Shown here: positions 39,820 to 64,000 of the stretch, in pieces | Layout of the letters: each line of letters begins with the position of its first letter | How positions within the stretch are numbered: the stretch's first letter is position 1 | Origin: Eledone cirrhosa | Lineage: Eukaryota | DNA length: 64,000 nucleotides | Direction of reading: 5' to 3' | Assembly: GCA_964016885.1 (NCBI GenBank) | Contig: OZ024743.1 | Coordinates: 293,880,001-293,944,000, forward strand | Notes under the pieces: model-generated | The model's database searches: none | The model's input: only the letters and a program-made list of their open reading frames with translations | What the model was told of the DNA's origin: nothing | Program-made: the position numbers and the translations under genes

Positions 39820-40705
39820 AATAATTGTTTCTACTTTTGGCAAAAGGCCAGCAATTATCCAGTACATAACTGGTATTTTATTTTATCGACCCCATAAGGA
39901 TGAAAGCAAAGTTTTCCTCGGCGGGATTACAACTCAGTCCGTAAAGGGACGGAGCTGTGCTGCAAATCATGGCGTCCGACCCGCTACCAATACTGCAAAT
40001 CCATCGGGTAAGGCGGAAAGGCAAAGTTAAACTCGGCGGATTTGAACTCATAATAATGATTATTATTTTATACGGTGGATTGGCAGTATTGGTAGAGGGT
40101 CGGGCGCGATGCTTTGAAGCATAGAGTTACCTCCCTTTATGATTTGAGTTCAAATCCCGCCGAGGTTAACTTTGCCTTTCATCCTTACGGGATCGATAAA
40201 ATAAAGTACCAGTAATACACTGGGACAATTGCTGGCCTGGTGCCAAAAGTAGAAACAATTATTATTATAATTATAGGGCGGTGGATTGGTAGTATCGGTA
40301 GAGGGTCGGATGCCATGCATGCTTTAACGCATAGAGTTACGGCCCTGGGCCATTCTCAGTTCAAATCCCGCCGAGGTTAACTTTGCTTTTCATCCTTACG
40401 GGGTCGATAAAATAAAGTACCAGTAATGCACTGGGTAATTGCTGGCCTTGTGCCATAAGTAGAAACAATTATTATTATAATTATGTTCATGGATTGGCAG
40501 TATCGTTAGAGCGTCGGACAAAGTGTCATATGATATTTGCTTACAGCTTTTTACTTTCTTAGTCCAAATTCCACCGATGAGAACTTTATCTTTCATATTT
40601 ATGATATAAACAAAATTAAGTACTAGTCAAGCACTGGGGTCAATACAACCGAGTTACCACTATCCCCCAAATGTCTAGCTATGCGTAAATAGGAAACAGT
40701 TATAA
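39820..40705. mobile_element. Cluster of about five main-family SINEs (minus 39820-40050; plus 40072-40262, 40276-40475, 40490-40705)
   Basis: Repeated A box, B box, central domain and tail motifs joined by (ATT)n. Confidence 0.85.
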
Positions 40706-41699: not shown

Positions 41700-41749
<50 letters not shown>

Positions 41750-42048
41750 TCTAATAATGATTTCTTTATTAGCCACAAGGGCTGACATCAAGAAAAACAT
41801 CACAGACGGAACAGAACGGTACGATGTGGGTTTTGTGCGTGTAAATATTTTTATTATTTATATAAGAAAAGAAAAAAAGACATAAAACATATATATATAT
41901 AAACAATAAAATGAAAATTGAAACAATGAAAAATTCCCCAATAGGGGGGAAACCTCCGAGGGTTACTCGTGGCGAAAACCACACAAAAGACCACGGCCAC
42001 CCTGACTACCAGAGCAAGCGCCCTCTCTCAATTTTTCCATCTCTCAAA

Positions 42049-45000: not shown

Positions 45001-45468
45001 CCACTAGCCCCACACGATCCAAGCGTGCATCCAAGATACCGTTCCAGTCGCCCACTAACACTAAAGAGCGGGACGTTCCAAGAAAGGTCTCTAGACGTCT
45101 TAAGAAATCTTGACGTCCTGCCCATGCTGGGGCGTAGACGGCTACTAGCCTGAAAGCATTGCCTTCGCTGCCGGTCACGTCCAGCACCACCGACTTACCT
45201 TCTGGGTCCAGGAAGATGGCCCGTATCGCGAGATCCAAGCCTCTCCGAAAAAGGACGGCAACCCCTCCACCCGACCCTGGACGGCTGGGAGATGCGTATA
45301 CATCGTAGCCGCCGAAGATCGGTGCGAAGGCCCGTGCCTCGGAGATTCTGGTTTCACTGATGGCCACCACATCTATGTTTAGTGACCTGAGGTCATTGAG
45401 CAGGTGACCCTGCTTACAAGATGACCCAGGCCACGTGCATTTATACTGCGTATTCTGAGTACAGCCAT
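42049..45468 (-). pseudogene. E2 ORF2 (APE-RT-CCHC), frameshifted
   Basis: SETR, GDWN, TDH, QGCPLS, YADD and CPR..HALVQC across several ORF fragments. Confidence 0.9.
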
Positions 45469-45500
45469 GTTGGATGAGAAACGGGGCAAATGAGAAAGGG

Positions 45501-47533
45501 TCACTTACCTTGTTCGTGTGGTGAAGGGACAGTAGAACCGTCCCTTTCGCTGGTCATGGGTGTTTCCAAGAGGATGTCAGTGTATATCCTCTTGGTAACC
45601 GTCCCTCTGAAGTCTCCAACTGCGTTGGGGAATTTTTGTTTTAAAGGTTTGTATTGTTCTATTGAGAGTTCGATGATGCTTATGTTTGCGGGAGAGTTCT
45701 TGGTGTTGGTGGGGTGTAGTAGTTTTTTTCCTTGATGTCTGTGTGCTGCTTTATATATTTTATGAGTTCTTTTTTTGCTATGTTTATGGCTGTGTACTTT
45801 TTTGGGGGGGAGGGGTGATTTTGTTGCCGTTTTCTTCTTGTTGCTGTTTGGTGTGTGTGTCTTGATGTGTTTGCGTTGTTGGTGTTTGTGGTGGTGTTGC
45901 TGTAAGTTTCCTTGCTGCCTTTACCCCTCTTGTATGCCTTCGCTTTTGGAGGGTGAATCTAAGGGGTTTTTTTGTTTTTTGTTTTTTGTGGCAGACTGTT
46001 TGCCACATCACTCCCGCCTCAAACTCCATGTCGGATTCTGTGGCGTCTGGGAAGAGTATGTGCTTCACGGCTGTTGGTGGTGATAGTGGAGCCCTCTTCG
46101 GCAATGTTGTTGCTTGTGTAGCTATTTCAAATGTAGCTATTGGTGTTGCCGCTACTGATGATGCTGCTTTAGTTATCCGTTGCCTTGGTACGGGTGCTAC
46201 GGACGTTGCCCTCCTACTCACCGTAGAAGGGGCTTCTTCGTTTGTTGCCTGTCCTGCTTTTGGTAGCAGCGGACCAGATATTGGAAGGAGAGGGGCCTTC
46301 TTCGGTGTCTTCTGCGGGCAAAAGGCCCTGAGGTGACCTTTCGACCCACAGAGATAACATTTTGGCCGTCTTCCTTCTACACTTATAGGGAGTTGGAGTC
46401 CTTCATTGAAGTCTATGATATCAGGGATAGCCTCAATACATTCCTGGTCAGTTTGTATAAGCATTTGCATGCCTATACCTGACCAGTTCTCTCTCCCTAT
46501 TTTTTCTACTTGCAGCATGGTCGCCCTGTTCTCAATTCCAGCAAGGACAGACGCGGCCAGCCAAGATATGGGCACGTCGGGTGGGACCTGGGTCACTTTG
46601 ACCCTCACAATTTTGTGCCCGCAGTAGGAGGGCACCAAGACTAACTCCTCACTCTTTAGGGTTTCCAAAGAGCGAGACTTTGCTTCCTGGGGGGTGCCGA
46701 AAAGTACGTCTACTGTGGCGTACTTTCTGCCTCGGGTGATGTGGGTTTTGCGTTCCCAGACGCACCCCAAGGCCTTTTGGATTTGAGCCACCGTGGCTCT
46801 CTCCACTCGATGTGAGATTTTGCTTACGGTGCGGTAAGTCACAGTCCGTAGCTGCTGGTCATTTGAAAAAATCGGGTGGAGGTTTCAGGGAAACTCTATT
46901 TGCGCTTCTTGTCACCATGGCCCTTGCGACTGCCATCTCCTCCTCTGTGACTAACACTGTCTCGATATTTCGGGCGACACCTGCTAAAGAAGTGGTCCCT
47001 TTTTCAGCAGCACCACTATTGCTGCCGCTACTGGTCTTACTGGTGGTGCTGAGGTCGCTATTACAGGTATCGGTGTCATTGTTGTTCTTTTCGCTGGTAC
47101 AGTTGTTGGTGTTGTTTTCGTTGATACTGTTGCTGCTGTTACTGTTATTGTGGCTGTTTTTATTATTGTTGTTTTTGTTGATACTGTTCCTACTATTATT
47201 GTTGTTGTGGCTGTTGTTATTGTCGTTCTCGACCTTACCGCTGTTATTTTTGTTATTGTCGTTCTCGACTTTACCGCTGTTATTTTTGTTATTGTTGTTC
47301 TCGACTTTACCGCTGTTATTTTTGGTGATGTTGTTGGTGATGTTGTTGGTGTTATTGTTGGTGTTGTTTGTGTTAGAAATATTTGGTAATTTTAAATCTG
47401 TAACAATCTTTTTTTAGTTTGTAATATTTTCGTTTATATTTACCTCCGCTGGAACGTTGTCTTGTTGAAATGCTGATAAAGTCTCCCTCTCTCTGTGTTG
47501 TCTGACAGGGCTCTCTCTCCTTGTGTTATCCAT
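45501..47533 (-). pseudogene. E2 ORF1 (RRM-like plus zinc knuckle), disrupted
   Basis: CYLCGSKGHLRAFC knuckle; C-terminal KFPNAVGDFR lies in a shifted frame. Confidence 0.85.
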
Positions 47534-47745
47534 GTTGAAATTAAAAAAATATATATTTTGACACAAATGCGAATACGACACCCCATTAAGGGGTGCCGTA
47601 TTATTTACTAGTGAACCCCTGTATTAGGTGGGTCACTTCTTCTAAACTTTTATCAAATTTAAAACTTGAATAAAAGGTTTAGAACGGTTGAAAAAGAGGT
47701 AAAACGTCGAAAAAGACTGGAGGCGATAAGAAGCGTGGCTTCAAC

Positions 47746-47792
<47 letters not shown>

Positions 47793-48043
47793 TTTCATTT
47801 ATTGGCCACAAGGGCCGACATATAGGGGACAACACAATAGACAGGGACAGTGGGGGTTTACATAGAGATCGAGTAAGTATAAATAACAAAAAAACAAAAT
47901 AACAATAAAAATACAACAATGAAAGTTCCCCAATAAGAGGGATCACCACCCAGGGTTGACTCAAGCACCCCACCAGTCCTGAGCCACCCGACGCTCCTAG
48001 GGCACCCGGGAAGGGCACCCCTCTCCTTCTCGAATTCACCAGC

Positions 48044-51000
48044 CTACAGGCGCATGATCAGAGTAGGCCCACTCACGCGGGCCATTCTCGCCACATTCAC
48101 CCACCTTTCAGTAAATGTACTGGGGGGCAGCACTTCTCTCTCCACCCTCACCTTCCTTTCCAAGTGAAACTTGAAGAAGTTGATGAGGGATTGGCCGAAG
48201 AGAAAAGTGTCTGTCTTCAGTCCTTTCAACCTGGTCCACCATGCAACCTCTTTCGCTACTGCCACCAGGCAGAGGAAAATTGCCTGCCCTTCCTGACCAA
48301 AAGAAGGCGGCGGGTCAATCTTCACTATGGACTCGGACGATAGCCGGATCCGTTCTACACGCGACAATAGCTGTTCGACATAACCCCACAAGTCAGCAAT
48401 GCACGGACACTGGACGAGTGCGTGCAGAACGGTTTCGTCGCTCTGCGCGCATCTCGGGCAGGTTCGTCTGACAGCACTTCCGTGCCTGTAGAGTTTATCC
48501 CGAACCGGCAGCGCCCCCCGGTAGCACTGCCAAGCGAGGGATTTCTGGAAGTTATCCATCGTCCCCGGCTCGAAAGTCCTCCGGAACATACTGGTCAGTT
48601 CTACTTCGTTGACGCCCAGAGCCTCTCCTAGTACGTCATCGCACTTGCCCTCCACTAATCCTCTATAGAAATCTTGAGTGGAAGTTCCACTGACCGCATT
48701 GCCCACCTTGCAGAGTGCAGTGAGCGCCTGGCAACATTCCAGATGCCAGTCGCCCAGTCTCGGTCTCTTCTTGACCCAGGACTGCAGCTCAGTCAAAGAG
48801 ATGAGCTGCGGAAAGGCCCGTCTAACAAACGGCGACCACACCTGTTCACCGTTTAGGCAAAATATCTGGAGATGTCGCAGCCTCAGCGCATGTCTGCGCA
48901 TCATTAGCCACGGCATGCCCAGCCCTCCACGAAGAGGGTGCTGGCAGCAGATGGACCGCCTCACCAACGGGACCCGTCCCCTCCACAAAAATTTGAAAAG
49001 GAGCCGTTCCAAATTGGCGAGGCGTGGACGGGGGCAAGGCACGACGGTCAGGCGGTAGTAGATGACGGACGCGATGTACGCGTTCGCCACCTCCGCCCGC
49101 CCTTTCAGTGATAGCTTTCTCTCAGCCCAATTCTGGGTGAGGTTGGCTATCCTGCTCGTCACCTCGTCCCAATTCTTATCCACCTGGAGGTCTGGTCCGA
49201 ACCAAACCCCGAGCAACTTTACCGGTCCGTCTGTCCAGCGCCCAACGACGCTGTTGGACGGCATGGACTTGCCTCTCCAGGTGCCGAGCTGCAAGCCCAC
49301 CGACTTTTCCGGGTTAAGTTTTGCTCCCGTCAACCTTTCATATTCCTCCAAATGGGTGCGGATCACCTCGATTTCCGAGGTGTCCGACACCATCACGGTG
49401 ATGTCGTCTGCATAAGCGGACGCAGCCTTTCTACGTCCCGGTTCGAGCGGGATGCCCTGCAACAACTCCAGCTTCCGCAGTAGAGGCTCAAGAGTCAATA
49501 CGTACAGAAGTGAGGAGAGAGGGCACCCTTGACGGACCGATCGAGAGATCTGAAACGGTTCCGAGAGGTGGCCATTAACTTTGACCACCGAGCGGATGCC
49601 GCTGTACATTGCAGCGATCCAGCTTCTGAAGACGGGGCCGAAGCCAGCCGCCTCGAGGACAGCCTCCAAGTACCGATGGTCGACCCTATCGAATGCTTTC
49701 GATTGATCTAAATTGATCAGAGCCCCACCGAAGCCAGGTTTGCACCCAACCCTCTCTATGATGTATCGCATGAGGTGGAGGTTGTCGTGTATGGACCTGG
49801 TCGGGATTGCGCAAGTTTGCGCCTCCCCAACCAAATCTTTGACGACAAGCGCCAACCTTTTCGCTAACACCTTGGCCAAAATCTTAAACTCTGTGTTGAG
49901 CAGGGTTATGGGCCTGAAATTATCTAGTGTGTCCCTCTTGTTCTCGTCTTTCCTTATCAGCGTCACTACGCCACGGCTCACAGAACTGGGAATGCTCCCG
50001 TTCTGCTGCCAGTTGCAGTAGAGCGCTTCGAGGAGATCGGAGAACAAGTCTGGCATATTTACGTAAAGCTCGTAGGGCAGACCATCCAAACCGGGTGACT
50101 TGCGACTCGAGCAGCCGACAAGGGCGTCCTGAATTTCGGCTGATGTTATCGGCTCTTCGCAGCGCTCAGCGTCGGCCGTCGAGAGGCGTGGCAAGCCGTC
50201 GAGGTAGGGACTGAAGTCCGCCGCCATCTCCGACTCACCCATCCTCCCGAACAATCGAGCAAAGTGCTGGCGAAAGGCCTCACACATCTGCTTGGAATCG
50301 CTCAGTTCGTGTCCATCTCGATCCGTCAAAGACCGAATTGTGGTTTTATTTCCACGCTGCGTCTCTGCAAAGCGAGCCCATCGGGCAGCTTTGGTTCCCT
50401 CGTTCCTCAGAGCACGCGCCTTAGCTCTGACAATGCAACCTTCGTGTTTCGCATTGAAGAAATGGTCTAGTGCCATTCTCGCCGCTAGCACGTCTGTTGC
50501 AATGCCACTACAAATAGCCTCGTCTAACTTAGCTATCAGCCCCTCCTCTTTTCTATTTTTCTCTATTGCTACTTCTTTGCTAAATCCTATCGAGGTTGCT
50601 CTAATCTCTCTTTTGAGTGCCCCCCACCACCTGTTGTTGACAACCCCCCCTGTCAACTTTTGCTTAACTAAGTTGTTGACCCGGTCCCTGTAAGCTTTAC
50701 GTGCCGGAAACGACATGTTTAGCTTCCAGTAGCTAGGTCCTAACCTACGTGTCTTATCTAGGTCGACCATACAGATCACAAGCTTGTGATCTGAATAGGC
50801 AACCGTTTTAAAATGTGGACATCCTACACTATTTCTATCTCTTTTCCTAATGAAAATCCTATCTATGTACGATCTAGATGACCCTATGCGATTGGTCCAG
50901 GTCCATACTGGCGCATTAGGGAAATCTAGTCGGTACCTGTCAGACAGTTGAAACTGGCTGATCAGGTACTTGAGGCTTTTGCACCCCCCGCTCCTATCAG

Positions 51001-51463
51001 ATACTCCCACACAATCCCAGCGTGCTTCTAAGATGCCATTCCAATCCCCTATTAACAGTAAAGGGCGAGACGTAAGCAGAAAGTTTTCCAGGCGCCTAAA
51101 GAAGTCCGGCCGACCGGCCCCAGTAGGGGCGTAGACTGCCACCAGTCTAAAGGCACCACCTTCGCTATTGCTCACGTCCAGGACCACCAACTTTCCGTCA
51201 GGATCCCGGAAGATTGACCTTACCTCGAGATCCAGACATTTCCTAAACAGCACAGCCACTCCACCTCCCATTCCCGGCCGACTAACAGATGCAAAGATCT
51301 GATAATCGTCGAAAATCGGCGCCAGTGCGCGTGTGTCGGAAATTCTGGTCTCGCTGATGGCAATTACATCCATTCCTAGTGACCTGAGGTCGTTGAGCAA
51401 GTGACCTTGCTTCCAGGGCGACCCCAGGCCACGAACATTTAAACTTCCTACTCTTATGGCCAT
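48044..51463 (-). CDS. E3 ORF2, 1139 aa: APE endonuclease, reverse transcriptase and CCHC zinc finger
   Basis: SLNVRGL, SETR, GDWN, IDR, SDH; NFRPITLLN, DQSKAFDRVDH, SVRQGCPLS, YADD; CPRC..ETVLHALVQC. Confidence 0.96.
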   Translation of the reverse strand: MAIRVGSLNVRGLGSPWKQGHLLNDLRSLGMDVIAISETRISDTRALAPIFDDYQIFASVSRPGMGGGVAVLFRKCLDLEVRSIFRDPDGKLVVLDVSNSEGGAFRLVAVYAPTGAGRPDFFRRLENFLLTSRPLLLIGDWNGILEARWDCVGVSDRSGGCKSLKYLISQFQLSDRYRLDFPNAPVWTWTNRIGSSRSYIDRIFIRKRDRNSVGCPHFKTVAYSDHKLVICMVDLDKTRRLGPSYWKLNMSFPARKAYRDRVNNLVKQKLTGGVVNNRWWGALKREIRATSIGFSKEVAIEKNRKEEGLIAKLDEAICSGIATDVLAARMALDHFFNAKHEGCIVRAKARALRNEGTKAARWARFAETQRGNKTTIRSLTDRDGHELSDSKQMCEAFRQHFARLFGRMGESEMAADFSPYLDGLPRLSTADAERCEEPITSAEIQDALVGCSSRKSPGLDGLPYELYVNMPDLFSDLLEALYCNWQQNGSIPSSVSRGVVTLIRKDENKRDTLDNFRPITLLNTEFKILAKVLAKRLALVVKDLVGEAQTCAIPTRSIHDNLHLMRYIIERVGCKPGFGGALINLDQSKAFDRVDHRYLEAVLEAAGFGPVFRSWIAAMYSGIRSVVKVNGHLSEPFQISRSVRQGCPLSSLLYVLTLEPLLRKLELLQGIPLEPGRRKAASAYADDITVMVSDTSEIEVIRTHLEEYERLTGAKLNPEKSVGLQLGTWRGKSMPSNSVVGRWTDGPVKLLGVWFGPDLQVDKNWDEVTSRIANLTQNWAERKLSLKGRAEVANAYIASVIYYRLTVVPCPRPRLANLERLLFKFLWRGRVPLVRRSICCQHPLRGGLGMPWLMMRRHALRLRHLQIFCLNGEQVWSPFVRRAFPQLISLTELQSWVKKRPRLGDWHLECCQALTALCKVGNAVSGTSTQDFYRGLVEGKCDDVLGEALGVNEVELTSMFRRTFEPGTMDNFQKSLAWQCYRGALPVRDKLYRHGSAVRRTCPRCAQSDETVLHALVQCPCIADLWGYVEQLLSRVERIRLSSESIVKIDPPPSFGQEGQAIFLCLVAVAKEVAWWTRLKGLKTDTFLFGQSLINFFKFHLERKVRVEREVLPPSTFTERWVNVARMARVSGPTLIMRL

Positions 51464-51492
51464 GCTGGCAGGATGAATGGGAGAGGAAAGGT

Positions 51493-53403
51493 TTACTTAC
51501 CTTCCGGGGTCTTGTGAAGGTCGGGTGGTTCGACCTCCATGGTTTGTGGGGTTTCTTTTGGGAACCCCTTTAATAGTCTTGACGTGGGTTTTACGTTCGG
51601 GGTTCCCACATCCCGAGGAAAGCTCTTTCGAATTTCTTTGTATGAAGCGAGCGACATTCGCATCAGAAGCAAATTATCTGGTACGCGAAATGTGCTCGCT
51701 TCAAATGTTTCCCCGTCTTTTTCGATGTTTGTGCTTCGTGCTACATGGGCCATCAATTCCTTGTTGGCCCTTCTGGCAAGCACGAAGTTTTTAATGTTTT
51801 GTTGCTCGGGTTTTATTTGTTCGTGTGATTGTGGTGGTGATAGCTTTGTTAGTGTTGTTTCTATTGTGTCTGCGTTTGTTGTGGGTGGGGTGTCTGTAGT
51901 TTCTGATGTTTGTGTGTCTATTTGTTCTTGTGTCTGTTTAGCTTGTTTGCGTTTGGGGGATTTTGGTGGTTGTGTTGGTGATGCTGTGGGGAAAATGTTT
52001 GTGTGGGTGGTGTGTGTATTTTTTTTTGTGGGGGTGTTTGTGCTTTGTGGATTTCTTTTTTTTTTGTGTTTTGTTTTTTGTATTTTGGGGGACTTTGGTT
52101 TTCCCTCATCTTCACTGCTGGAGGATGAGGGGTCTGTGGCTGTGAGCGTGTTTGTGTCTGAGTGAGTGTTTATGTTCTTGTTCGTGTGTGTATTTTGGGG
52201 GGGAGGGGGAATGGGAGAGCTTTCCTCGTTTCCCCCCTGGGTGTGCAATTTTGGTGGTTCCATTGTTGACGGTGTTGCTGGTGGTCCTTGTCCCGGCGTC
52301 GCCAGCAGTGGAATCTTTCGACCCCTTGCGCTTTTCGGCAGTTGAGGGCAGAAGGCTCGCAAGTGTGTCGTTTCCCCACAAAGGAAACAATGCGGCCTTT
52401 TGCCCTCAGTCATTATATGCAACACCCTCCCGTTTTGGAGGCGGATGTGGTCCGGGATTGCTTTTACGTTTTCGGGTCTGATTTGGAGCAGTATCTCCAG
52501 ATCAACCCCGGACCAGTCGTCCCTGGCAGTTCTCGTTGCCTCTACCGGGACTGTATCCGTTCCTTCCACGATTACGCAACCCAGGAGCCACCACATATCA
52601 AGTCCTGGTGGAATCCTGGGAATGCGCACACGTGCTATTCGTTTTCCCATGTGGGAGGGGTACATTATGACCTTGCTGGTTTTGCAAGGGGTCATTGAAT
52701 GCTTCACAGCGAGGGCTTCAGACTTGAACAGCACCGAAACGGTGCCGTATTGCCTGCCCCTCTCTATGAAGTCTGTGTCTTCTCTGATGTATTTCAGTGC
52801 GGCTTCTATGTCAGCTTGGGCGATTATCGCTGCCCTCTTTGTCTCTACTGAGATGCATCTGAAATGCACCGTTCTTTTTTCCACTGCCTCAATGGCTTCT
52901 GCCGGGACAGTTAAGTTTGCCCAGGTCTGCTCTTGATTTATGATTTTCCAGGCCTGGGCCAACTTTTCCTCTCTGTTGGTTAAGTCGATGCTGTAGCATG
53001 GTCTCCTTTTAGCCGCTGCCACAGCAGCGAAGGTGTTCTTGTTGGTGTTGTCACTGTTGTTGTTCTTGTTGGTGTTGCTGCTGCTATTGCTGTTGTTGTT
53101 CTCCCCTGTGTCGTGGTTACCCTCTGTGCTGTTGGCCTTGTTGGTGCTGTTGCTGTCGCTACTATTACTCTCTGTGCTGTTCGTTTTGTTGGTGCTCTCG
53201 CTATTACCACCTTCTGCGCTGTTCGGCTTGTTGGTGTTGGTGTTGTCACTGTTACCACCTTCCGCGCCGCTCGGCCCGTTGGTGCTGGCACTGTCGCTGC
53301 TCATACACGTGCTGGTGGCGCTCCTCGCCTCACCTCTCCTCTCAACGCTCAAGTCGCCGTTGCACGACAGCAGACCCGCCTCTAGGGGGCGTGGCTCCGC
53401 CAT
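51493..53403 (-). CDS. E3 ORF1, 636 aa nucleic-acid-binding protein
   Basis: N/S/T-rich N-terminus, RRM-like core, CFLCGETTHLRAFC knuckle and P/T/K-rich linker. Confidence 0.9.
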   Translation of the reverse strand: MAEPRPLEAGLLSCNGDLSVERRGEARSATSTCMSSDSASTNGPSGAEGGNSDNTNTNKPNSAEGGNSESTNKTNSTESNSSDSNSTNKANSTEGNHDTGENNNSNSSSNTNKNNNSDNTNKNTFAAVAAAKRRPCYSIDLTNREEKLAQAWKIINQEQTWANLTVPAEAIEAVEKRTVHFRCISVETKRAAIIAQADIEAALKYIREDTDFIERGRQYGTVSVLFKSEALAVKHSMTPCKTSKVIMYPSHMGKRIARVRIPRIPPGLDMWWLLGCVIVEGTDTVPVEATRTARDDWSGVDLEILLQIRPENVKAIPDHIRLQNGRVLHIMTEGKRPHCFLCGETTHLRAFCPQLPKSARGRKIPLLATPGQGPPATPSTMEPPKLHTQGGNEESSPIPPPPQNTHTNKNINTHSDTNTLTATDPSSSSSEDEGKPKSPKIQKTKHKKKRNPQSTNTPTKKNTHTTHTNIFPTASPTQPPKSPKRKQAKQTQEQIDTQTSETTDTPPTTNADTIETTLTKLSPPQSHEQIKPEQQNIKNFVLARRANKELMAHVARSTNIEKDGETFEASTFRVPDNLLLMRMSLASYKEIRKSFPRDVGTPNVKPTSRLLKGFPKETPQTMEVEPPDLHKTPEGK

Positions 53404-53901
53404 GTTTTTTTGAGAAAAAAATTATGATTTTTCCAAAATAAAGTTCAAATATTTGGGCCAAAAGGCCCAAATATTATGAGTTATTCCTTCACAGGATACA
53501 AATTAATGTCTTATAATGCTTCAGCGGTACAAAAAATAAACAATTCTCTACAATTAATCCTCAAAAAATTGCTTACTCACGGAGCTTCAAAAAACGTACA
53601 TCCACTTTCGTCAATAATAATAATAATAATAATAATAATGATTTCTTTATTAACCACAAGGGTTTACATAAAGTAGACATTAAGGACAGTGCAGGACAAT
53701 GCAGGACGGTACAAATGGGCATTTCTGCGTGTAAAAAAACAAAAACAGAGGATGTAACAAAAATAACAATGAAAATAACAATGAAAAATTCCCCAATAGG
53801 GGGGAGACTTCGGAGGGACATTTGTGGAGAAAGCCCAGTAAAAAGCCACAATGACCCTGACCACCAAGGCAAGTGCCCTCTCCCAGTTTTCCACCTTTAG
53901 T

Positions 53902-56900
53902 TTACAGATATATACTCAGAGTCGGCCCATTCACTCGAACCATTCTTGCTTCTCTCACCCATCTTTCAACAAAATGCTGGGAAGAGAGCACTTCCTTCTC
54001 TACTCTGATTTTCCTTTTCAAATGAAATTTGAAAAAGTCAATCAGAGCATCACCGAAGAGGTAAGTGCTCGTCTTCAGCCCTTTCAAACGTGTCCACCAT
54101 ACTATCTCTTTCGCCATGGCCACCAGACAGATAAAAACTGCCTGCCCTTCCCGGCTAAAGGAGGAGGGCGGGGCAATCCTCACGATAGACTCAGATGATA
54201 GCTGGATCCGTCCTAAACGCGACAGCAGGTGTTCGACATAAACCCACAAGTCAGCAATTTTCGGACACTGGACGAGTGCGTGCAGGACGGTTTCGTCGCC
54301 CTGCGCGCATCTCGGACATGCCCGGCTGACGGCACCTCCATGCCTGTAGAGTTTATCCCGAACTGGCAAGGCTCCTCGGTAGCACTGCCAGGCCAGAGAT
54401 TTCTGGAAGTTGTCCATAGGCCCTGGCCCGAAAGTTCTTCCGAAGAGATTGGCTAGTTGATTTTCGTCGACGCCTAGAGTTTCCCCAAGTACGTCGTCGC
54501 TCTTCCCCTCCACTAATCCTCTATAGAACGCCGAGGTGGAGTTTCCACCGATCACATTGCCCGATTGGTCGAGGGCTGTGAGCGCCTGAAGACATTCCAG
54601 TCTCCAGGCGCTCCCTCTCGGTCTTCGCTTGACCCAGGACTGCAGCTCCGTCAAGGAAACGAGCTGGGGAAAAACGCGTCTAGCAAACGGCGACCACACC
54701 TGATCACCGTCGAGGAAGAGGTGGAGATGTCGTAGCCTGAGCGCGTGCCTGCGCATCATCAGCCACGGCATGCCCAGCCCTCCACGTAGCGGGTGTTGAC
54801 AACAGATGGACCGCCTGACCATCGGAGCACGTCCCTTCCACAAAAAGCGAAAGAGCAAACGCTCCAGCGCAGTCAGGCGAGGCTTTTGACAAGGTACGAC
54901 GGTTAGGCGGTAGCAGATGACAGACGCGATGTACGCGTTAGCCACCTCCGCTCGACCTTTCAGGGATAGCTTCCTCTCCGCCCATTTCTGGGTGAGAGAA
55001 GCCACCCTGCTCGTCACCTCGTCCCAGTTTTTGTCCGTCTGGAGGTCCGGACCGAACCAGACCCCTAGCAATTTAACCGGTCCGTCCGTCCAGCGACCGA
55101 CGACGCTGTTGGACGGCATGGACCTTCCTCTCCAGGTGCCGAGCTGCAGGCCCACTGACGTTTCCTGGTTGATCATTGCTCCTGTCACCGCTTCGTATTC
55201 TCTTAGTGTAGTGCCGATCGCCTCGATGTGTTTGGCGTTCGACACCACTACGGTGACATCGTCCGCATATGCTGACACGGATCTTCCGCATCCTAGTTCG
55301 CGCGGGACTCCCCTCAACGTCTCCAGTTTGTGCAGTAATGGCTCGAGAGTCAATACGTACAAGAGGGACGAGAGGGGACATCCTTGGCGGACCGAGCGCA
55401 TGATGTTGAACGGTTCCGACAGGTGACCGTTCACTCTCACTACAGAGCAGATGTCGCTGTGCATGGCAGCGATCCAGCCTCTGAAGACGGGCCCAAAGCC
55501 AGCCGCCCTCAGGACTGCCGCTAGGTAACGATGGTCGACCCTATCGAAAGCTTTCGACTGATCTAAATTGATCAAGGACCCACCCGTGCCAGGTTCCCTA
55601 GCTACCCTCTCTACGATGTATCGCATGAGGTGGAGGTTGTCGTGGATGGATCTGTCGGGAATGGCGCATGTCTGCGCCTCTCCCACCAGACCACCAACGA
55701 CAAGCGCCAACCTCTTTGCTAGCACCTTGGCCAAAATCTTAAACTCTGTGTTTAGCAGAGTTATGGGCCGGAAATTGTCTATGTTATCCCCCTTGTTCGG
55801 ATCCTTTCTCAGCAGTGCTACCGCTCCTCGGCTCACAGAACTGGGAATTCTCCCGTTCTGTTGCCAGTTGCAGTAGACGTCCGCCAAGAGGCCTCCGAAC
55901 AAGTCTGGCATCTGTACGTAAAGTTCATAGGGCAGACCATCCAAACCAGGCGATTTACCCCTTGTGCAGCCAGTCATTGCCTCCCGTACTTCAGCGGCTG
56001 TTATCGGCTTTTCGCAACACTTCGCCTCAGTGGCCAAGAGCCGCAGCAGTCCGTCGAGGTAGACACTAAAGTCCATCCCTCTACCCGGCCCCCCGCTGCC
56101 CCCGAACAGCTGAGCGAAGTGTCGCTGAAAAGCTTCACACATTTGCCCGGGATCGAGTAGCATGCGCCCGTCGTGGTCCACCAAAGACCGGATCGTGGCT
56201 TTGTTGCCACGACGCGCCTCCGTCACTCGGGCCCATTGAACGGCTTTCGTCCCCTCGTGTCTGAGAGCACGCACCCTAGCTCTGACAACGCAGCCTTCGT
56301 GCTTTGCATTGAAGAATTGGTCAAGGGCCAATTTCGCCGCAAGCACGTCGGTCGCAATGCCTTTGCTAAGCGCCTCGTCTAATTTTCTAACTAGTTCTCC
56401 CTCTGCTCTATTGTTCTCTATTGCTAAAGCCTTATTAAACCTAATCGATTCTATTCTAATCGCTCTTTTCAGAGCAAACCACCACTTGTTGTTGACGATG
56501 GTCCCCGTCAACGCCCGCTTAACTAGTTCGCTAATTCGGTCTCTGTAGGCCTTGCGCGCTGGTAAGGACGCGTTTAGCTTCCAGTAGCCGGGTCCTCGTC
56601 TATGAAGCCTATCTAAATCAAGCACACAAGTCACGAATTTGTGGTCCGTGTAGCTGACTATCTTGAATTGTGGACAGCCTATGCTAGACCTATCTATTTC
56701 CCTACAAAATACTCTATCTAGATATGATCTGGATGACCCTATGCGGTTTGTCCAAGTCCACATGGGCACATTCGGGAAATCCAATCGGTACCTGTCAGAC
56801 AGTTCAAAACGCCTGAGCAGGTTGGTGAGGCTCTTGCACCCTCCACCCCTATCCGCTAATCCCACACAGTCCCAGCGTGCATGTAAGATCCCGTTCCAGT

Positions 56901-57321
56901 CGCCCACTAACACTAAAGAGCGGGACGTTCCAAGAAAGGTCTCCAGACGCCGGAAGAAATCAGGCCGCCCTGCTCCTGTCGGGGCATAGACGGCCACTAG
57001 CCTGAAAGCTTGCCCGTCTCCGCTGGTCACGTCCAGCACCACCAGCTTACCCTCTGGGTCCAGGAAGATGGCCCGTATGGCGAGATCCAAACCTCTCCGA
57101 AAAAGCACAGCAACTCCTCCACCCGATCCAGGACGGCTGGGAGATGCGTACACATCGTAGCCGCCGAAGATCGGTGCGAAGGCCCGTGCTTCGGAGATTC
57201 TGGTCTCGCTGATGGCCACTAAATCTATGTTTAGTGACCTGAGGTCGTTGAGCAGGTGACCCTGCTTCCATGACGACCCCAAGCCACGCGCATTTATGCT
57301 GCCTATTCTGAGTGAGGTCAT
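53902..57321 (-). CDS. E4 ORF2, 1139 aa: APE, RT and CCHC
   Basis: Same catalytic motifs as E3 (GDWN, TDH, QGCPLS, YADD, CPRC..H..QC). Confidence 0.96.
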   Translation of the reverse strand: MTSLRIGSINARGLGSSWKQGHLLNDLRSLNIDLVAISETRISEARAFAPIFGGYDVYASPSRPGSGGGVAVLFRRGLDLAIRAIFLDPEGKLVVLDVTSGDGQAFRLVAVYAPTGAGRPDFFRRLETFLGTSRSLVLVGDWNGILHARWDCVGLADRGGGCKSLTNLLRRFELSDRYRLDFPNVPMWTWTNRIGSSRSYLDRVFCREIDRSSIGCPQFKIVSYTDHKFVTCVLDLDRLHRRGPGYWKLNASLPARKAYRDRISELVKRALTGTIVNNKWWFALKRAIRIESIRFNKALAIENNRAEGELVRKLDEALSKGIATDVLAAKLALDQFFNAKHEGCVVRARVRALRHEGTKAVQWARVTEARRGNKATIRSLVDHDGRMLLDPGQMCEAFQRHFAQLFGGSGGPGRGMDFSVYLDGLLRLLATEAKCCEKPITAAEVREAMTGCTRGKSPGLDGLPYELYVQMPDLFGGLLADVYCNWQQNGRIPSSVSRGAVALLRKDPNKGDNIDNFRPITLLNTEFKILAKVLAKRLALVVGGLVGEAQTCAIPDRSIHDNLHLMRYIVERVAREPGTGGSLINLDQSKAFDRVDHRYLAAVLRAAGFGPVFRGWIAAMHSDICSVVRVNGHLSEPFNIMRSVRQGCPLSSLLYVLTLEPLLHKLETLRGVPRELGCGRSVSAYADDVTVVVSNAKHIEAIGTTLREYEAVTGAMINQETSVGLQLGTWRGRSMPSNSVVGRWTDGPVKLLGVWFGPDLQTDKNWDEVTSRVASLTQKWAERKLSLKGRAEVANAYIASVICYRLTVVPCQKPRLTALERLLFRFLWKGRAPMVRRSICCQHPLRGGLGMPWLMMRRHALRLRHLHLFLDGDQVWSPFARRVFPQLVSLTELQSWVKRRPRGSAWRLECLQALTALDQSGNVIGGNSTSAFYRGLVEGKSDDVLGETLGVDENQLANLFGRTFGPGPMDNFQKSLAWQCYRGALPVRDKLYRHGGAVSRACPRCAQGDETVLHALVQCPKIADLWVYVEHLLSRLGRIQLSSESIVRIAPPSSFSREGQAVFICLVAMAKEIVWWTRLKGLKTSTYLFGDALIDFFKFHLKRKIRVEKEVLSSQHFVERWVREARMVRVNGPTLSIYL

Positions 57322-57356
57322 GTTTAAAATAGAGTGGAAAAGATGGGAAAGACCAC

Positions 57357-59453
57357 TTACCGTACTTTTGGTAGAGGAGGGATGGTTTTTACATCCCTTT
57401 TCACTTGATCGTCTGGTGAAGGGACCGTTGAATCGTCCCTTCGGCTGGTCGTCGGCTCTTCTAAGAGAATGTCTGAATATACTCTTCGATTAATGGTTCC
57501 TCCTAGGTCCCTGAAATCACCAACTGCGTTGGGGAATTTCGTTTTAATGTTTGTGTATTGTTTCTGTGCTATTTTTAGCAGTCTTATGTTAGTTGGCGTT
57601 TTGATTGGTGCTGGTATTATGTAGTCCTGTTGTGAAATGTCTGTGTGTTCAATTATGTAAGTCATTAGTTTCTTGTTGTGTGTGTTTATTGCCGTGCATT
57701 TGTTTTTCTGGGGGTGGGGTGTGGTTCTGCTATTTTCTTGTCGTTGTTGCTGGGTGTGTGTGTTTTGTTGTTGTGTTTGCGATGTTGGTGCTTGTGGTGG
57801 TGGTGTTGAAGGTGTTGTTGGCGGTGGGGTTGTCGCCGGTGGTGATGGTGGTGCTGGTGTGGGTGGTGATGGTGTTGGTGGTGTTGCTGCTGTGGGTCTC
57901 TTTGCAGTAGACTTTACCCTTTTCTCATTTCTTTCCTCCCTTTTCAAAGGCGACGATGCGCTGCTTCTCCGTTTGTGCCTTCTTGCGACCTTTTGCCATC
58001 CCTCTCCCACCTCACACTCCATGTCTGATTCTGTAAGGTCGGGGAGGGGTACCAGCTCCACTCTTTCACTTGTTGTTGTTGGTGATGTTTGCACTGGAGT
58101 CTCTGTTGCAGCTGCATTTGGTATTGCTGTTGTTGTTGTTAATATTTCCACTGCTGCTGCTGTCTTTGATTTCCGTGGAGTGGGTATGGGTACCATGGAC
58201 CTATCGTTCCTGGTTGCCGCTTGTCCTGTTGCTGGTAGCCGTGGAGCCGGATTCGGAAGGAGGGGGGTTTTCTCCTTTCTCAGGGTCTTCTCGTTGCAGA
58301 AGGCCCTGAGGTGAGTCTTCGATCCACAGCGAAAGCATTTCGGGCGTTTGCCCTCAACACTTATGGGCAGTTGAGTGCCGTTATCGAAGTCTATCACATC
58401 CGGGATAGCTTCGATGCACTCCTGGTTGGTTTGGATTAGCATCTCAATGGAGGAGCCGACCCAATCTTCTCTTACTTTTTTCTGTACTTGCAGTACAGTT
58501 GTTTTGTCCTCGATTCCGACGAGGACAGACGCGGCCAGCCAAGAAGGGGTCATTCCGGGTGGGACGTGGGTCAGTTTTACCCTCACAATTTTTTGCCCGC
58601 AGTAGGAGGGCACCAACACCATTTCCTCGCTCCTTAGGGTCACTACTGATTGGGCCTTTGCCTCCTGGGGTGTGGCAAAAAGTACGTCTACGGTGGCGTA
58701 TTTTTTGCCTCGGGTGATGTGCGTTTTCCTCTGCCACACAGACCCCAAGGCTTTTTGTATTTGGGCCTCTGTGGCTCTTTCCACCCTACGGGATTTTGTA
58801 CTTACTGTACGGTACGTGACCGTACAGTGCTCTTGGGTTTTGAAAAAATTTTTCGCTGCCTTGCAGATTGCTCGGTGTCCGTTCTTTGTCACCATCTTCT
58901 TCGCTTCCTCTAATTCCTCATTTGTTATGAGGATTGTTTCCAAGTTTTTCGCAATACCTGCAAATGAGATTGGTTTTTCTCTGCTGTTGTTGTTGTCGTC
59001 AGAGCTGCTGGTACTTTTGTTGTTGCTGCAGGTACTACGACTACTGCCTCCGCCGCTGTTGCTGTGGTTGTTGTTGGTGTTGCTGCTGCTAATGCTGTTG
59101 TTGTTTATGCTGCTGGTGATGCTGTTGCGGCTGCTACTGTTGTTTTCATTGTCACTGTTGCTGTTGTTATTACGGCTGCTACTGCTATTATTCCTGACGT
59201 CAGACGAATGAACTGGGTTTTCGTATTTCCCGCACACCTGTTTCGTCGCTGTCGTCGTCGTCGTGGAGAAACCTTGCACGCTTTGCACGAGACTTTTCTT
59301 TTCTTTCGTCGCTTGCGAAAGAGAAGGGAGGGAGAGAGACACATTTAAAGAAGGGAGGGAGAGAGACGATCTTCTCTCTGCTGTAGTGATGATTGAGGAA
59401 GAAGAAGACGGAATGAGTGGGAGTGACGTATGAAATTTCTTTTTCGTAGCCAT
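57357..59453 (-). CDS. E4 ORF1 (ATG at 59453, MATKKK...)
   Basis: AAAAAAACATG start context, poly-N/S tract and CFRCGSKTHLRAFC knuckle. Confidence 0.9.
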   Translation of the reverse strand: MATKKKFHTSLPLIPSSSSSIITTAERRSSLSLPSLNVSLSLPSLSQATKEKKSLVQSVQGFSTTTTTATKQVCGKYENPVHSSDVRNNSSSSRNNNSNSDNENNSSSRNSITSSINNNSISSSNTNNNHSNSGGGSSRSTCSNNKSTSSSDDNNNSREKPISFAGIAKNLETILITNEELEEAKKMVTKNGHRAICKAAKNFFKTQEHCTVTYRTVSTKSRRVERATEAQIQKALGSVWQRKTHITRGKKYATVDVLFATPQEAKAQSVVTLRSEEMVLVPSYCGQKIVRVKLTHVPPGMTPSWLAASVLVGIEDKTTVLQVQKKVREDWVGSSIEMLIQTNQECIEAIPDVIDFDNGTQLPISVEGKRPKCFRCGSKTHLRAFCNEKTLRKEKTPLLPNPAPRLPATGQAATRNDRSMVPIPTPRKSKTAAAVEILTTTTAIPNAAATETPVQTSPTTTSERVELVPLPDLTESDMECEVGEGWQKVARRHKRRSSASSPLKREERNEKRVKSTAKRPTAATPPTPSPPTPAPPSPPATTPPPTTPSTPPPQAPTSQTQQQNTHTQQQRQENSRTTPHPQKNKCTAINTHNKKLMTYIIEHTDISQQDYIIPAPIKTPTNIRLLKIAQKQYTNIKTKFPNAVGDFRDLGGTINRRVYSDILLEEPTTSRRDDSTVPSPDDQVKRDVKTIPPLPKVR

Positions 59454-59666
59454 GTTTTTTTGTTTAAAATGAAATTTTGGGTACAAAACCCCAATAACTG
59501 GTTATTTAACCCCGAAGGGCCAAATAACGGACAGAAAGACCCCTCTCACGAGGAGGAGGGTGTCTTTATCAACAATTTGGTTCAAGTTTTAAACAATTTA
59601 CAATTGTTTTAACGGTTAAAAATTACTATACCTTACAGAGCCGAGCCTCCGTCAACCATGGCATTC

Positions 59667-59709
<43 letters not shown>

Positions 59710-59952
59710 TTTTCTTTATTAACCACAAGGGTTTACATAAAGTAGACATTAAGGACAGTACATGACAATACAGGACGGTACAAATGGGCATTTCTGCGTG
59801 TAGAAAAACAGAGGATGAAATAAAATAACAAAGAAAGAATTCCCCAATAGGGGGGAGACTTCCGAGGGACATTTGTGGAGAAAGCCCATTAAAAAACCAC
59901 AGTGGCCCTGACCACCAGGGCAAGTGCCCTCTCCCAGTTTTCCACCTTTAAT

Positions 59953-62900
59953 TTACAGACACATACTCAGAGAAGGCCCATTCATTCGGGCCATACTTGC
60001 TTCTCTCACCCATCTTTCAACAAAATGCTGGGAAGAGAGCACTTCCCTCTCTACCCTGATTTTCCTTTTCAAATGAAATTTGAAAAAGTTAATCAGGGCA
60101 TCACCGAAGAGGTAAGTGCTCGTCTTCAGCCCTTTCAAACGTGTCCACCATACTATCTCTTTCGCCATGGCCACCAGACAGATAAAAACTGCCTGCCCTT
60201 CCAGGCTAAAGGAAGGGGGCGGGGCAATCCTCACGATGGACTCAGCTGATAGCTGGATCCGTCCTACACGTGACAGCAGGTGTTCGACATAAACCCACAA
60301 GTCAGCAATGCTCGGACACTGGACGAGTGCGTGCAGGACGGTTTCGTCGCCCTGCGCGCATCTCGGACATGTCCGGCTGACGGCACCTCCATGCCTGTAG
60401 AGTTTATCCCGAACTGGCAAAGCTCCTCGGTAGCACTGCCAGGCCAGGGATTTCTGGAAGTTGTCCATAGGCCCCGGCCCGAAAGTCCTTCCGAAGAGAT
60501 TGGCTAGTTGATTTTCGTCGACGCCTAGAGTTTCTCCAAGTACGTCGTCGCTCTTCCCCTCCACTAATCCCCTATAGAACGCCAAGGTGGAGTTTCCACC
60601 GATCACATTGCCCGATTGGTCGAGGGCTGTGAGCGCCTGAAGACATTCCAGTCTCCAAGCGCTCCCTCTCGGTCTTCGCTTGACCCAGGACTGCAGCTCC
60701 GTCAAGGAGACGAGCTGGGGAAAAACGTGTCTTGCAAACGGCGACCACACCTGATCACCGTCGAGGAAGTGGTGGAGATGTCGTAGCCTGAGCGCGTGTC
60801 TGCGCATCATCAGCCACGGCATGCCCAGCCCTCCACGTAGCGGGTGTTGACAGCAGATGGACCGCCTGACCATCGGAGCGCGTCCCTTCCACAAGAAGCG
60901 AAAGAGCAAACGCTCCAGCGCAGTCAGGCGGGGCTTAGGACAAGGTACGACGGTCAGGCGGTAGTAGATGACGGATGCGATGTACGCATTCGCCACCTCC
61001 GCTCGACCTTTCAGGGATAGCTTCCTCTCGGCCCATTTCTGGGTGAGAGAAGCCACCCTGCTCGTCACCTCGTCCCAGTTTTTGCCGTCTGGAGTTCTGG
61101 ACCGAACCAGACCCCTAGCAATTTAACCGGTCCGTCCGTCCAGCGCCCGACGACGCTGTTGGACGGCATGGACCTGCCTCTCCAGGTGCCGAGCTGCAGG
61201 CCCACTGACTTTTCCTGGTTGATCATTGCTCCTGTCACCGCTTCGTATTCTCTTAGTGTAGTGCCGATCGCCTCGATGTGTTTGGCGTTCGACACCACTA
61301 CGGTGACATCGTCGGCATATGCTGACACGGATCTTCCGCATCCTAGTTCGCGCGGGACCCCCCTCAACGTCTCCAGTTTGTGCAGTAATGGCTCGAGAGT
61401 CAATACGTACAATAGGGACGAGAGGGGACATCCTTGGCGGACCGAGCGCATGATGTTGAACGGTTCCGAAAGGTGACCGTTCACTCTCACTACAGAGCAG
61501 ATGTCGCTGTGCATGGCAGCGATCCAGCCTCTGAAGACGGGCCCAAAGCCAGCCGCCCTCAGGACTGCCGCTAGGTAACGATGGTCGACCCTATCGAAGG
61601 CTTTCGACTGATCTAAATTGATCAAAGACCCACCCGTGCCAGGTTCCCTAGCTACCCTCTCTACGATGTATCGCATGAGGTGGAGGTTGTCGTGGATGGA
61701 TCTGTCGGGAATGGCGCATGTCTGTGCCTCACCCACCAGACCACCAACGACAAGCGCCAACCTCTTTGCTAGCACCTTGGCCAAAATCTTGAACTCTGTG
61801 TTTAGCAGAGTTATGGGCCTAAAATTATCTATGTTATCCCCCTTGTTCGGATCCTTTCTCAGCAGCGCCACCGCTCCTCGTCTCACAGAGCTGGGAATTC
61901 TCCCATTCTGTTGCCAGTTGCAGTAGACGTCCGCCAAGAGGCCTCCGAACAAGTTTGGCATTTGTACGTAAAGTTCATAGGGCAGACCATCCAAACCAGG
62001 CGATTTACCCCTTGTGCAACTAGTCATTGCATCCCGTACTTCAGCGGTTGTTATCGGCTTTTCGCAACACTCCGCCTCAGTGGCCGAAAGCCGCGGCAGT
62101 CCGTCGAGGTAGACACTAAAGTCCATCCCTCGATCCGGCCCGCCACTGCCCCCGAACAGTTGAGCGAAGTGTTGCTGAAAAGCTTCACACATTTGCCCGG
62201 GATCGAGTAGCATGCGCCCGTCGTGGTCCACCAAAGACCGGATCGTGGCTTTGTTGCCACGACGCGCCTCCGCCACTCGGGCCCATTGAACGGCTTTCGT
62301 CCCCTCGTGTCTGAGAGCACGCACCCTAGCTCTGACAACGCAGCCTTCGTGCTTTGCATTGAAGAATTGGTCAAGGGCCAATTTCGCCGCAAGCACGTCG
62401 GTCGCGATGCCTTTGCTAAGCGCCTCATCTAATTTTCTAACTAATTCTCCCTCTGCTCTATTTTTCTCTATTGCTAAAGTCTTACTAAACCTAATGGACT
62501 CTATTCTAATTGCTCTTTTCAGAGCAAACCACCACTTTTTGTTGACGATGGCCCCCGTCAACGCCCGCTTAACTAGTTCGCTAATCCGGTCTCTGTAGGC
62601 CTTGCGCGCTGGTAAGGACGCGTTTAACTTCCAGTAGCCGGGTCCTCGTCTATGAAGCCTATCTAAGTCAAGCACACAGATCACGAATTTGTGGTCCGTG
62701 TAGCTGACTATCTTGAATTGTGGACAGCCTATGCTAGACCTATCTATTTCCCTACAAAATACTCTATCTAGATATGATCTGGATGACCCTATGCGATTTG
62801 TCCAAGTCCACATGGGTACATTCGGGAAATCCATTCGGTACCTGTCAGACAGTTCAAAACGTCTGAGCAGGTTGGTGAGACTCTTGCACGCTCCTTCCCT

Positions 62901-63371
62901 ATCCACTAATCCCACACAATCCCAGCGTGCATCTAAGATCCCGTTCCAGTCGCCCACTAACACTAAAGAGCGGGACGTTCCAAGAAAGGTCTCCAGACGC
63001 CGGAAGAAATCAGGCCGCCCTGCTCCTGTCGGGGCATAGACGGCCACTAACCTGAAAGCTTGCCCGTCTCCGCTGGTCACGTCCAGCACCACCAACTTAC
63101 CTTCTGGGTTCAGGAAGATGGCCCGTATGGCAAGATCCAAACCTCTCCGCAAAAGCACAGCAACTCCTCCCCCCGATCCCGAACGGCTGGGAGATGCGTA
63201 TACATCGTAGCCGCCGAAGATCGGTGCGAAAGCCTGTGCTTCGGAGATTCTGGTCTCGCTGATGGCCACTACATCTATGTTTAGTGACCTGAGGTCGTTG
63301 AGCAGGTGGCCCTGCTTCCATGACGACCCCAAGCCACGCGCATTTATGCTGCCCATTCTGAGTGAGGTCAT
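59953..63371 (-). pseudogene. E5 ORF2 with a single 1-bp frameshift near 61085 (mutation or sequencing error)
   Basis: ORFs 63371-61065 and 61068-59953 together are nearly identical to E4 ORF2. Confidence 0.9.
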
Positions 63372-63405
63372 GTTGAAAAGGAGTGGAAAAGATGGGAAAG
63401 ACCAC

Positions 63406-64000
63406 TTACCTTACTTCTCGTAGGGGAAGGACGGCTTTTCCATCCTTTTCACTGCTTGTGGCCTCCTCAGGAAGGATGTCCTTATAAATCCTCCTGGAGA
63501 GTGCTTGTCGGAAGTCTCCGATGTCTTTGGGGAATTTTTGTTTTAGTGTCATGTACGTTTTCTGTGTGATGCGAGTGATTTGTATGTGTGGAGGTGGTGT
63601 GAATTTTGGGGTTGTTGTGTAGTCTTTTTCTGTGATGCTGGTATTGTGTTGGATGTAGTGTAATAATTGCTTGTTGTTCAAATTTAATGCTGTGTAGTGT
63701 GTATCGTTTTGGTTGTTTTGTTTTGTTTGCGTTTGTTGTGGGTTTGTTTCTGTTTCGTATTTTGGTGACTTTTGTGGTGTAGGTGATAGTGGTGCTGGGG
63801 ATAATGATGGTGATGGTGTTGGTGTTTGGGTTGATGGGGTTGGTGATGCTGGTGTGGATGGTGGCATATCTGTCCTAACTTTTTTGTTTCTTAGTTTATT
63901 TGTTTCCCTCTGTATTTTGTTTTTGGAGGGGGAAGGAAGAGAATTTTTTCTTTTTTGGTTTCTTTTTTTTTTCCGGATATCGTTTCCCACTCCTCGTCGT
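63406..64000 (-). CDS. E5 ORF1 C-terminal part
   Basis: QLLHYIQHNTS..KQKFPKDIGDFR, nearly the same as the E1 ORF1 end. Confidence 0.8.
   Translation of the reverse strand, partial: RRGVGNDIRKKKRNQKRKNSLPSPSKNKIQRETNKLRNKKVRTDMPPSTPASPTPSTQTPTPSPSLSPAPLSPTPQKSPKYETETNPQQTQTKQNNQNDTHYTALNLNNKQLLHYIQHNTSITEKDYTTTPKFTPPPHIQITRITQKTYMTLKQKFPKDIGDFRQALSRRIYKDILPEEATSSEKDGKAVLPLREVR

Follow-up and report, generated by a model that had tools for sequence, protein, structure and literature searches.

A 64,000-nt stretch of the Eledone cirrhosa genome (assembly GCA_964016885.1, contig OZ024743.1, positions 293,880,001 to 293,944,000; hereafter the window) carries on its minus strand a stack of long interspersed nuclear elements (LINEs), in which an upstream open reading frame (ORF), ORF1, is followed by ORF2. 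We observed that the heptamer GGTAAGT, a consensus 5' splice site (G/GTAAGT; here and below, a slash marks the putative exon-intron boundary), overlaps the ORF1 stop codon in 4 stacked elements, E2 to E5, and that the same heptamer lies at the end of ORF1 in a sister family, B, whose ORF2 is 41% identical to that of E4. The motif, its position, and its retention in 3 registers and in 2 deeply diverged families are matters of direct observation. Judging from the sequences compared, it is likely that the motif is a selected site of the U1 type, because family B keeps the heptamer at such a distance, with its upstream DNA at chance-level identity, and because donors are also found after the ORF2 stop. 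As to what the site does, we tentatively propose that it is an alternative splice donor, use of which would remove ORF2 and leave an mRNA for ORF1 alone, joined at the stop codon, as in copia.

The heptamer at the ORF1 stop codon in the window

On the minus strand, the heptamer occupies positions 45503-45509 in E2, 51495-51501 in E3, 57355-57361 in E4 and 63404-63410 in E5, and both these coordinates and the stop codons agree with a preceding sequence-only reading of this DNA. ORF1 ends GGT AAG TGA in E2 and GGT AAG TAA in E3, where the stop begins at intron position +6 (AAG/GTAAGT and AAG/GTAAGTA, respectively); it ends CGG TAA in E4 and AGG TAA in E5, where the stop corresponds to positions +2 to +4 (ACG/GTAAGT and AAG/GTAAGT, respectively). 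The motif of E4 is the sole GGTRAGT on the sense strand of that 6-kb element. As had also been noted, the decayed element E1 lacks the motif: a deletion of 9 nt between two AAGT repeats took both the donor and the ORF1 stop, leaving a remnant at 36279-36282 on the same strand. The pyrimidine-rich spacer of ~30 nt that had been described between the motif and the ORF2 ATG was likewise found, with lengths of 34 nt in E2 (45469-45502), 31 nt in E3 (51464-51494), 33 nt in E4 (57322-57354) and 32 nt in E5 (63372-63403), all on the minus strand, and a pyrimidine content of 74-81%. The terminal CAG of the E3 spacer would close an intron of just 36 nt.

GGTAAGT is not over-represented in the window at large (13 matches against 8.1 +/- 2.7 expected, with 7 of 100 shuffles reaching 13), so that only its position can carry meaning. 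By sequence comparison, that position and its conservation exceed chance. No 9-mer other than AAGGTAAGT is common to E2, E3 and E5 within the ~195 nt surrounding the junction, and over the 120 nt upstream of the motif E3 is 48-50% identical to the other elements, where shuffled sequences give a baseline of 45%. The base at +7 differs within the window, being G or A. Taken alone, the window evidence is weaker than the sequence-only reading had claimed, because the 2 reading frames reduce to one 1-nt indel and because Gly-Lys codons yield the same heptamer in ORF2. The frame difference between E2/E3 and E4/E5 comes from one extra base inserted immediately before the motif, a single event that E4 and E5 have in common. 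The heptamer within ORF2, which serves as a control, arises ~270 nt into the frame from Pro-Glu-Gly-Lys codons in E1, E2 and E5 (35970-35976, 45193-45199 and 63095-63101, minus strand) and is altered in E3 and E4.

Donors at stop codons in related families

Family B was found by profile search, in tandem arrays on eukaryote-derived contigs of a bacterial bin, G001; a further search for relatives returned just G001 again among the best 80 of 137 matches. The ORF1 of family B shares a core, a zinc knuckle and a C-terminal motif with the window ORF1 at ~20% identity, and a quick maximum-likelihood tree (omitting L010 and L028, which are too short) joined the window family, B and a third family, C, with an SH-aLRT value of 100 and at ~1 substitution per site from one another. 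ORF1 of family B ends GAG TAA and is immediately followed by G/GTAAGT, 7 nt before the ORF2 ATG, which places the motif in a third register, wholly non-coding. We found the heptamer at 65 of 65 ORF2 starts in G001, the junctions among the loci fetched representing 17 haplotypes. The earlier argument that retention in 2 codon frames points to an RNA-level signal is thus supported in its conclusion by the non-coding, third-register heptamer of B, although its premise came down to one indel.

E2-E5 and B have no 7-mer in common other than GGTAAGT, and the 120 nt upstream in B are 47-49% identical to the window elements, against the baseline of 45%. At ≤40 nt from a given stop, the exact heptamer is expected by chance in ~0.2% of cases and GGTRAGT in 0.4-0.6%. 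Base +7 in B may be G, C or T; such variability is the edge to be expected if pairing with U1 sets the motif. A U1 gene in locus L089 has a 5' end complementary to donor positions -1 to +6, and the donor G/GTRAGT can form 7-9 consecutive pairs with it.

Within the B unit, GGTRAGT is confined to 2 places, one past each of the stop codons of ORF1 and ORF2. The second of these donors, 15 nt after the ORF2 stop, matches a strict pattern in 47 of 54 anchored copies (7 of the 47 being without the G at -1), and reads GTRAGT in 13 of 13 haplotypes of the fetched loci, alternating between GTAAGT and GTGAGT. Family C has CAG/GTAAGT ~40 nt after its ORF2 stop, and a copy from G002 has the same at the homologous place. 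The second donors of B, C and the G002 copy (L056 8484-8492, L094 9571-9580 and L093 ~7920) are followed by a pyrimidine-rich run. No strong donor was seen after the ORF2 stop in the window family. Donors at stop codons would therefore appear to be a recurring trait of the clade, since they are found at ORF1 only in the window family, at both stops in B and at ORF2 only in C.

Some features of these contigs were observed in passing. G001 contigs C3-C19 (L050-L092), although part of a bacterial bin, are made up of long arrays of eukaryote type, whose LINE copies are near-identical and mostly intact, with a period of 6.4-6.8 kb and no simple-repeat tail; 5'-truncated units are also tandem on C9. 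In L089 (3036-3199 / 9961-10137), a distant L1-type element stands just downstream of a complete U1 small nuclear RNA (snRNA) gene, and a second, 5'-disrupted U1 copy lies 1.5 kb past that element.

Proposed splicing out of ORF2 and the competing explanations

In the mechanism that we propose, the U1 small nuclear ribonucleoprotein would bind the consensus 5' splice site on the ORF1 stop codon, and in some transcripts this donor would be joined to an acceptor near the 3' end of the element, with removal of 3.2-3.7 kb. A junction on the stop codon would leave the ORF1 protein (ORF1p) whole or with a short extra tail. Exon-junction nonsense-mediated decay follows a 50-55 nt rule; a junction on or just after the stop would therefore allow the mRNA to escape it, and in this respect the position of the motif fits real splicing. 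Intron-retained RNA would stay the template for the ORF2 protein (ORF2p) and for retrotransposition, and the outcome would be ORF1p in excess over ORF2p. Candidate acceptors can be pointed to. In E4, a pyrimidine tract with a CAG ending at 53725 (53725-53750, minus strand) lies in the 3' untranslated region (UTR), with counterparts at 59794 in E5 and 32753 in E1 and none in E2 or E3; a second candidate, in late ORF2, has a TAG ending at 54155 (54155-54180, minus strand), falls on Pro/Ser/Phe codons, and recurs at 60206 in E5 and 33164 in E1. E3 has candidate late-ORF2 acceptors of its own at 48293 and 48259, and family B has a conserved candidate in its 3' UTR. Joins of ORF1 to the late-ORF2 acceptors that are in frame (E3, E4, E5) were not counted, as ~1 in 3 sites would be in frame by chance.

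Of the 3 options put forward in the sequence-only reading, the splicing out of ORF2 is the one that fits best. Splicing itself is something that we infer, because no junction, spliced retrocopy or family-wide acceptor was found, and several results weigh against it. RNA was not among the 6 runs listed for the window, which has no bearing on expression. Four contig sets, of unrecorded library type, were compared with E3 and E4; the comparison gave 831 letter differences, 19 indels, 1188 joints and 3442 loose ends, of which 40, 12, 15 and 24, respectively, are covered here. Among those 15 joints, none started from 51500 or 57360 and none had minus-strand GT-AG ends, and contigs in sets X4, X5 and X6 cross the donors unspliced. 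None of the ORF1 ends inspected in family B and G002 belonged to a spliced retrocopy, and there was no acceptor (pyrimidine tract plus AG) conserved across the whole window family, the candidates differing by subfamily. The distribution of the donor is also uneven. Family C (also in G001), which is closer to B than the window family is, has no donor at its ORF1 end; of 4 assessable decayed B-like copies in G002, 1 keeps the ORF1 donor, 2 have it mutated and 1 has it deleted; and of 13 L1-like families at greater distance in which both ORFs can be seen, 12 are without an ORF1-stop donor. Moreover, the 65 copies of B are close relatives and so count as one independent test. A wider check of conservation, as had been advised, thus bears the motif out throughout the G001 copies of family B and fails to find it in C and in most distant families.

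The single distant family with such a site, L008, has G/GTGAGT on its ORF1 stop (1927-1935), which is near chance for 13 tries; in this L1-type element, ORF1 includes both a zinc knuckle and a GDSL-esterase-like domain. An ORF1 protein screen gave 148 matches, of which 32 passed a completeness filter and 3 were complete window-type ORF1s, 29-30% identical to that of E3. As a protein-level proxy only for the DNA motif, P0163 ends in GK and P0161 in GKS, and P0116 in neither; the extra C-terminal tail of P0116 was considered as element-derived and rejected, no frame having matched better than shuffles.

A step in contig depth was set aside. In X4, contigs over the 3' 1.15 kb of E3 ORF1 (51515-52671) have a depth of 191-197, ~9-fold above those on either side, including 21 for the contig running into ORF2; the ORF1 contigs listed for X1 show an even depth of ~1800-2000. 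The break in X4 falls at 51514, a wobble position that lies 13 nt above the donor, and we did not take the step as support for splicing because contig depth cannot rank parts of a gene. Also rejected was a donor-masking hairpin as a shared feature: E2, E3 and one copy of B are predicted to form it, but it beats shuffles only in E3 (z -2.3), and its pairing is broken by the B variants. No Rfam family was matched in the window or in the scanned B and C loci, and hence there is no RNA-gene target.

An alternative that dispenses with splicing is that U1 binds the site to control 3'-end formation or RNA fate, suppressing early cleavage of the full-length RNA; the donor after ORF2 would in the same manner suppress the element's own poly(A) site and allow read-through in tandem arrays. 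Such a role needs no acceptor and so fits the lack both of a conserved acceptor and of spliced retrocopies, the window family and families B and C all lie in head-to-tail arrays, and U1 acts in this way in the Arabidopsis element EVD (PMC5580714). Few canonical poly(A) signals, however, lie downstream of the donor. There is none between the donor and the terminal one in E4 or in three B copies, the first signal in E2 and E3 comes ~1150 nt past the donor, and several signals lie upstream in the A-rich ORF1, where a U1 site further downstream would be ill-placed. Protection from premature polyadenylation, another of the original options, is weakened by this scarcity of AATAAA/ATTAAA downstream of the donor, and we consider a non-splicing role of U1 to be unlikely.

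It is also conceivable that the motif has no function, and persists in the window family by descent, stop-codon constraint and Gly-Lys codons, with the match in B a coincidence. The origin of the frame change in one indel, the identical heptamer from ORF2-internal codons, and the recurrence of a C-terminal GK at the protein level would all agree with this, as would the lack of the donor in family C and the fact that just 2 families with DNA and close ORF2s were testable. Against it, the motif is non-coding in B with flanks at chance identity, and with 2 families at ~0.5% each the probability of one match is ~1%; furthermore, the second donor varies in B solely within the splice consensus and recurs in C and in a G002 copy. 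A functionless motif is, on this evidence, likewise unlikely.

Termination-reinitiation at ORF2, with the motif a translation signal that resembles a donor by accident, appears improbable to us. Reinitiation has been proposed for human L1 (PMC5381506), and the motif does always lie between the ORF1 stop and the ORF2 ATG. Yet the stop takes three different positions with respect to the motif, the spacer measures 7 nt in B and 31-34 nt in the window, the pyrimidine tract is absent in B, and a motif of the same kind follows ORF2, where there is no downstream ORF; this option of the sequence-only reading is weakened because neither register, spacer length nor pyrimidine tract is conserved. Hardly credible, finally, is a very short intron removing the ORF1 stop and ORF2 start to fuse the ORFs: donor, pyrimidine tract and AG do come in close succession, with a join in frame in E4 and E5, but the intron would be just 36-54 nt, the corresponding join in E2 would not be in frame, use of the nearest CAG in E3 leads to an early stop, and the stop in B lies upstream of the donor, so that no fusion is possible there.

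Structure of the elements and relation to known systems

The window elements are LINEs of ~6 kb in a head-to-tail stack, each terminated by AATAAA and an (ATT)n tail, and the ORFs, poly(A) signals and tails given below are on the minus strand. Both ORFs are intact in E3 (ORF1, 636 aa with a CCHC knuckle by alignment, 51493-53403; ORF2, 1139 aa, 48044-51463) and in E4 (ORF1, 698 aa with a chimeric end, 57357-59453; ORF2, 1139 aa, 53902-57321). ORF1 of E2 (45501-46884) is frameshifted into segments 46884-45784 and 45920-45501, and that of E5 is represented by its 3' part (63406-63999), which runs off the window. E4 ORF1 resembles a chimera, E2-like to ~57405 (57395-57410) and then with an E5-like end, the switch lying ~45 nt above the donor and leaving a ~42-nt duplication and one donor. 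In ORF2 DNA, E3 is ~75% identical to the other elements, and E4 is 95% identical to E5. Pfam identified Exo_endo_phos (the N-terminal APE endonuclease), RVT_1 (the reverse transcriptase, RT) and a C-terminal zf-RVT in the ORF2 of E3 and E4, and the closest solved relative of E4 ORF2 is human L1 ORF2p (best PDB match, E 5e-50; R2, 3e-21).

The separate upstream ORF1, 3' poly(A) signal, simple-repeat tail and lack of long terminal repeats (LTRs) are hallmarks of the L1 clade, to which the window elements belong. An ORF1 with a CCHC zinc knuckle is a feature of the Tx1 group; zf-CCHC in E2 ORF1 falls under the curated cut-off (E 0.0036), family B ORF1 is above it, and the Cys/His columns are invariant in 6 of 6 ORF1 cores. 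The elements are described as Tx1-like, an assignment to Tx1 being plausible with a tree that contained no named Tx1 reference. The nearest named ORF1 homologues are from Octopus sinensis and Argonauta hians, which makes an octopod host probable; annotated ORF1 models include GAB1605864.1 and XP_036364761.1. No relatives of the ORF1 core were returned from a word-indexed protein set (0 of 709), nor of the window ORF2 from viral (0 of 71; 0 of 81), genome (0 of 40) or metagenome (0 of 56) contigs.

The poly(A) signals lie at 53646-53651 (E4), 47798-47803 (E3), 41765-41770 (E2), 32673-32678 (E1) and ~59715-59720 (E5). The (ATT)n tail of E4 (53613-53639) abuts the 5' end of E3, and the other tails are at 59667-59708, 47746-47790, 41701-41758 and 32596-32666. 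At 3 of 3 intact inter-element junctions in this one window (E5/E4, E4/E3 and E3/E2), a 5' end abuts an (ATT)n tail, target duplications being unreadable inside the microsatellite. Four divergent subfamilies (41701-63999) are thus stacked directly on one another's tails, which suggests insertion into the microsatellite made by the preceding copy.

Elsewhere in the window, positions 7496-9335 of the plus strand show open frames of 127-212 aa that are broken, bear no relation to E1-E5 and possibly represent another decayed retroelement; a Pfam scan of two of them gave no match. A dispersed repeat of ~190 nt, an inverted pair of the same, and a 45-nt tandem array partly sharing its sequence were found at 26925-27909, 36797-36985 and 39809-40518, one copy of the repeat interrupting ORF1 of E1. 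In addition, an Octopus sinensis gene model annotated "tectonic-3-like" (P0028) starts with a stretch 62% identical to the window family's endonuclease, and is either a mis-joined model or one with an exonised fragment.

The proposed use of the donor has its closest precedent in Drosophila copia, where a donor near the end of the structural ORF serves to remove a ~3-kb intron containing the enzymes (10.1101/2023.05.27.542554); the resulting 2.1-kb spliced gag RNA makes structural protein in excess, and the unspliced RNA is the preferred template (10.1101/2023.05.27.542554; PMC5580714). Copia is, however, an LTR element in which splicing is proven and a single long ORF is present, whereas the window LINEs have 2 ORFs with their own stops, and we infer their splicing. 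A conserved U1-type 5' splice site likewise marks the GAG/POL boundary of the Arabidopsis Ty1/copia element EVD (shGAG), at which U1 both splices and blocks premature termination, guarding the long RNA (PMC5580714). There, the intron is short and tied to an internal poly(A) site, and it is splicing that generates the stop, whereas in the window LINEs the stop is present in unspliced RNA and no early poly(A) signal follows the donor. Human L1 shows that functional donors and acceptors can exist inside an L1-clade LINE (spliced integrated retrotransposed elements, SpIREs; PMC5860796), but its donors are in the 5' UTR, the copies are dead ends and the splicing is read as harmful; the window donor, in contrast, is on the ORF1 stop and is kept across deep divergence. 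The microsatellite-targeting Tx1-clade elements Kibi and Koshi resemble the window elements in their 2 ORFs, APE endonuclease and RT, and in insertion beside a simple repeat (PMC4494074); the repeat in the window differs, being (ATT)n, and the available part of that account gives no splice signal. L1-Tx1 families have been recently active in Octopus vulgaris (PMC13282606), and neither the main text of that paper nor that of a vertebrate L1 spacer survey (PMC5381506) contains 'splic'. In the literature searched, which lacked most subscription journals and Repbase reports, we came across no description of a donor at the ORF1 stop of a LINE. The copia-type strategy has been shown for copia-type elements, and a LINE case has not yet been found in print.

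In summary, the signal at the ORF1 stop is real, conserved and probably selected, with a putative role in splicing. An excess of ORF1p over ORF2p from one LINE RNA is usually credited to translation, and splicing is viewed as damage; the persistence of the ORF1-stop donor while RT diverged by ~1 substitution per site is suggestive of a second route to that excess. A broader proposal, which we offer with more reserve than that for the donor itself, is that this L1/Tx1-like clade may make purposeful use of the host spliceosome, with donors tied to the stop codons of ORF1 and, in sister families, of ORF2 giving decay-proof ORF1-only and 3'-trimmed mRNAs in a programmed, copia-like control of the ORF1p:ORF2p ratio. 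If true, such control would operate in elements that are usually treated as needing to avoid splicing, and these very abundant elements could be predicted to serve as strong donors once they had landed in host introns.

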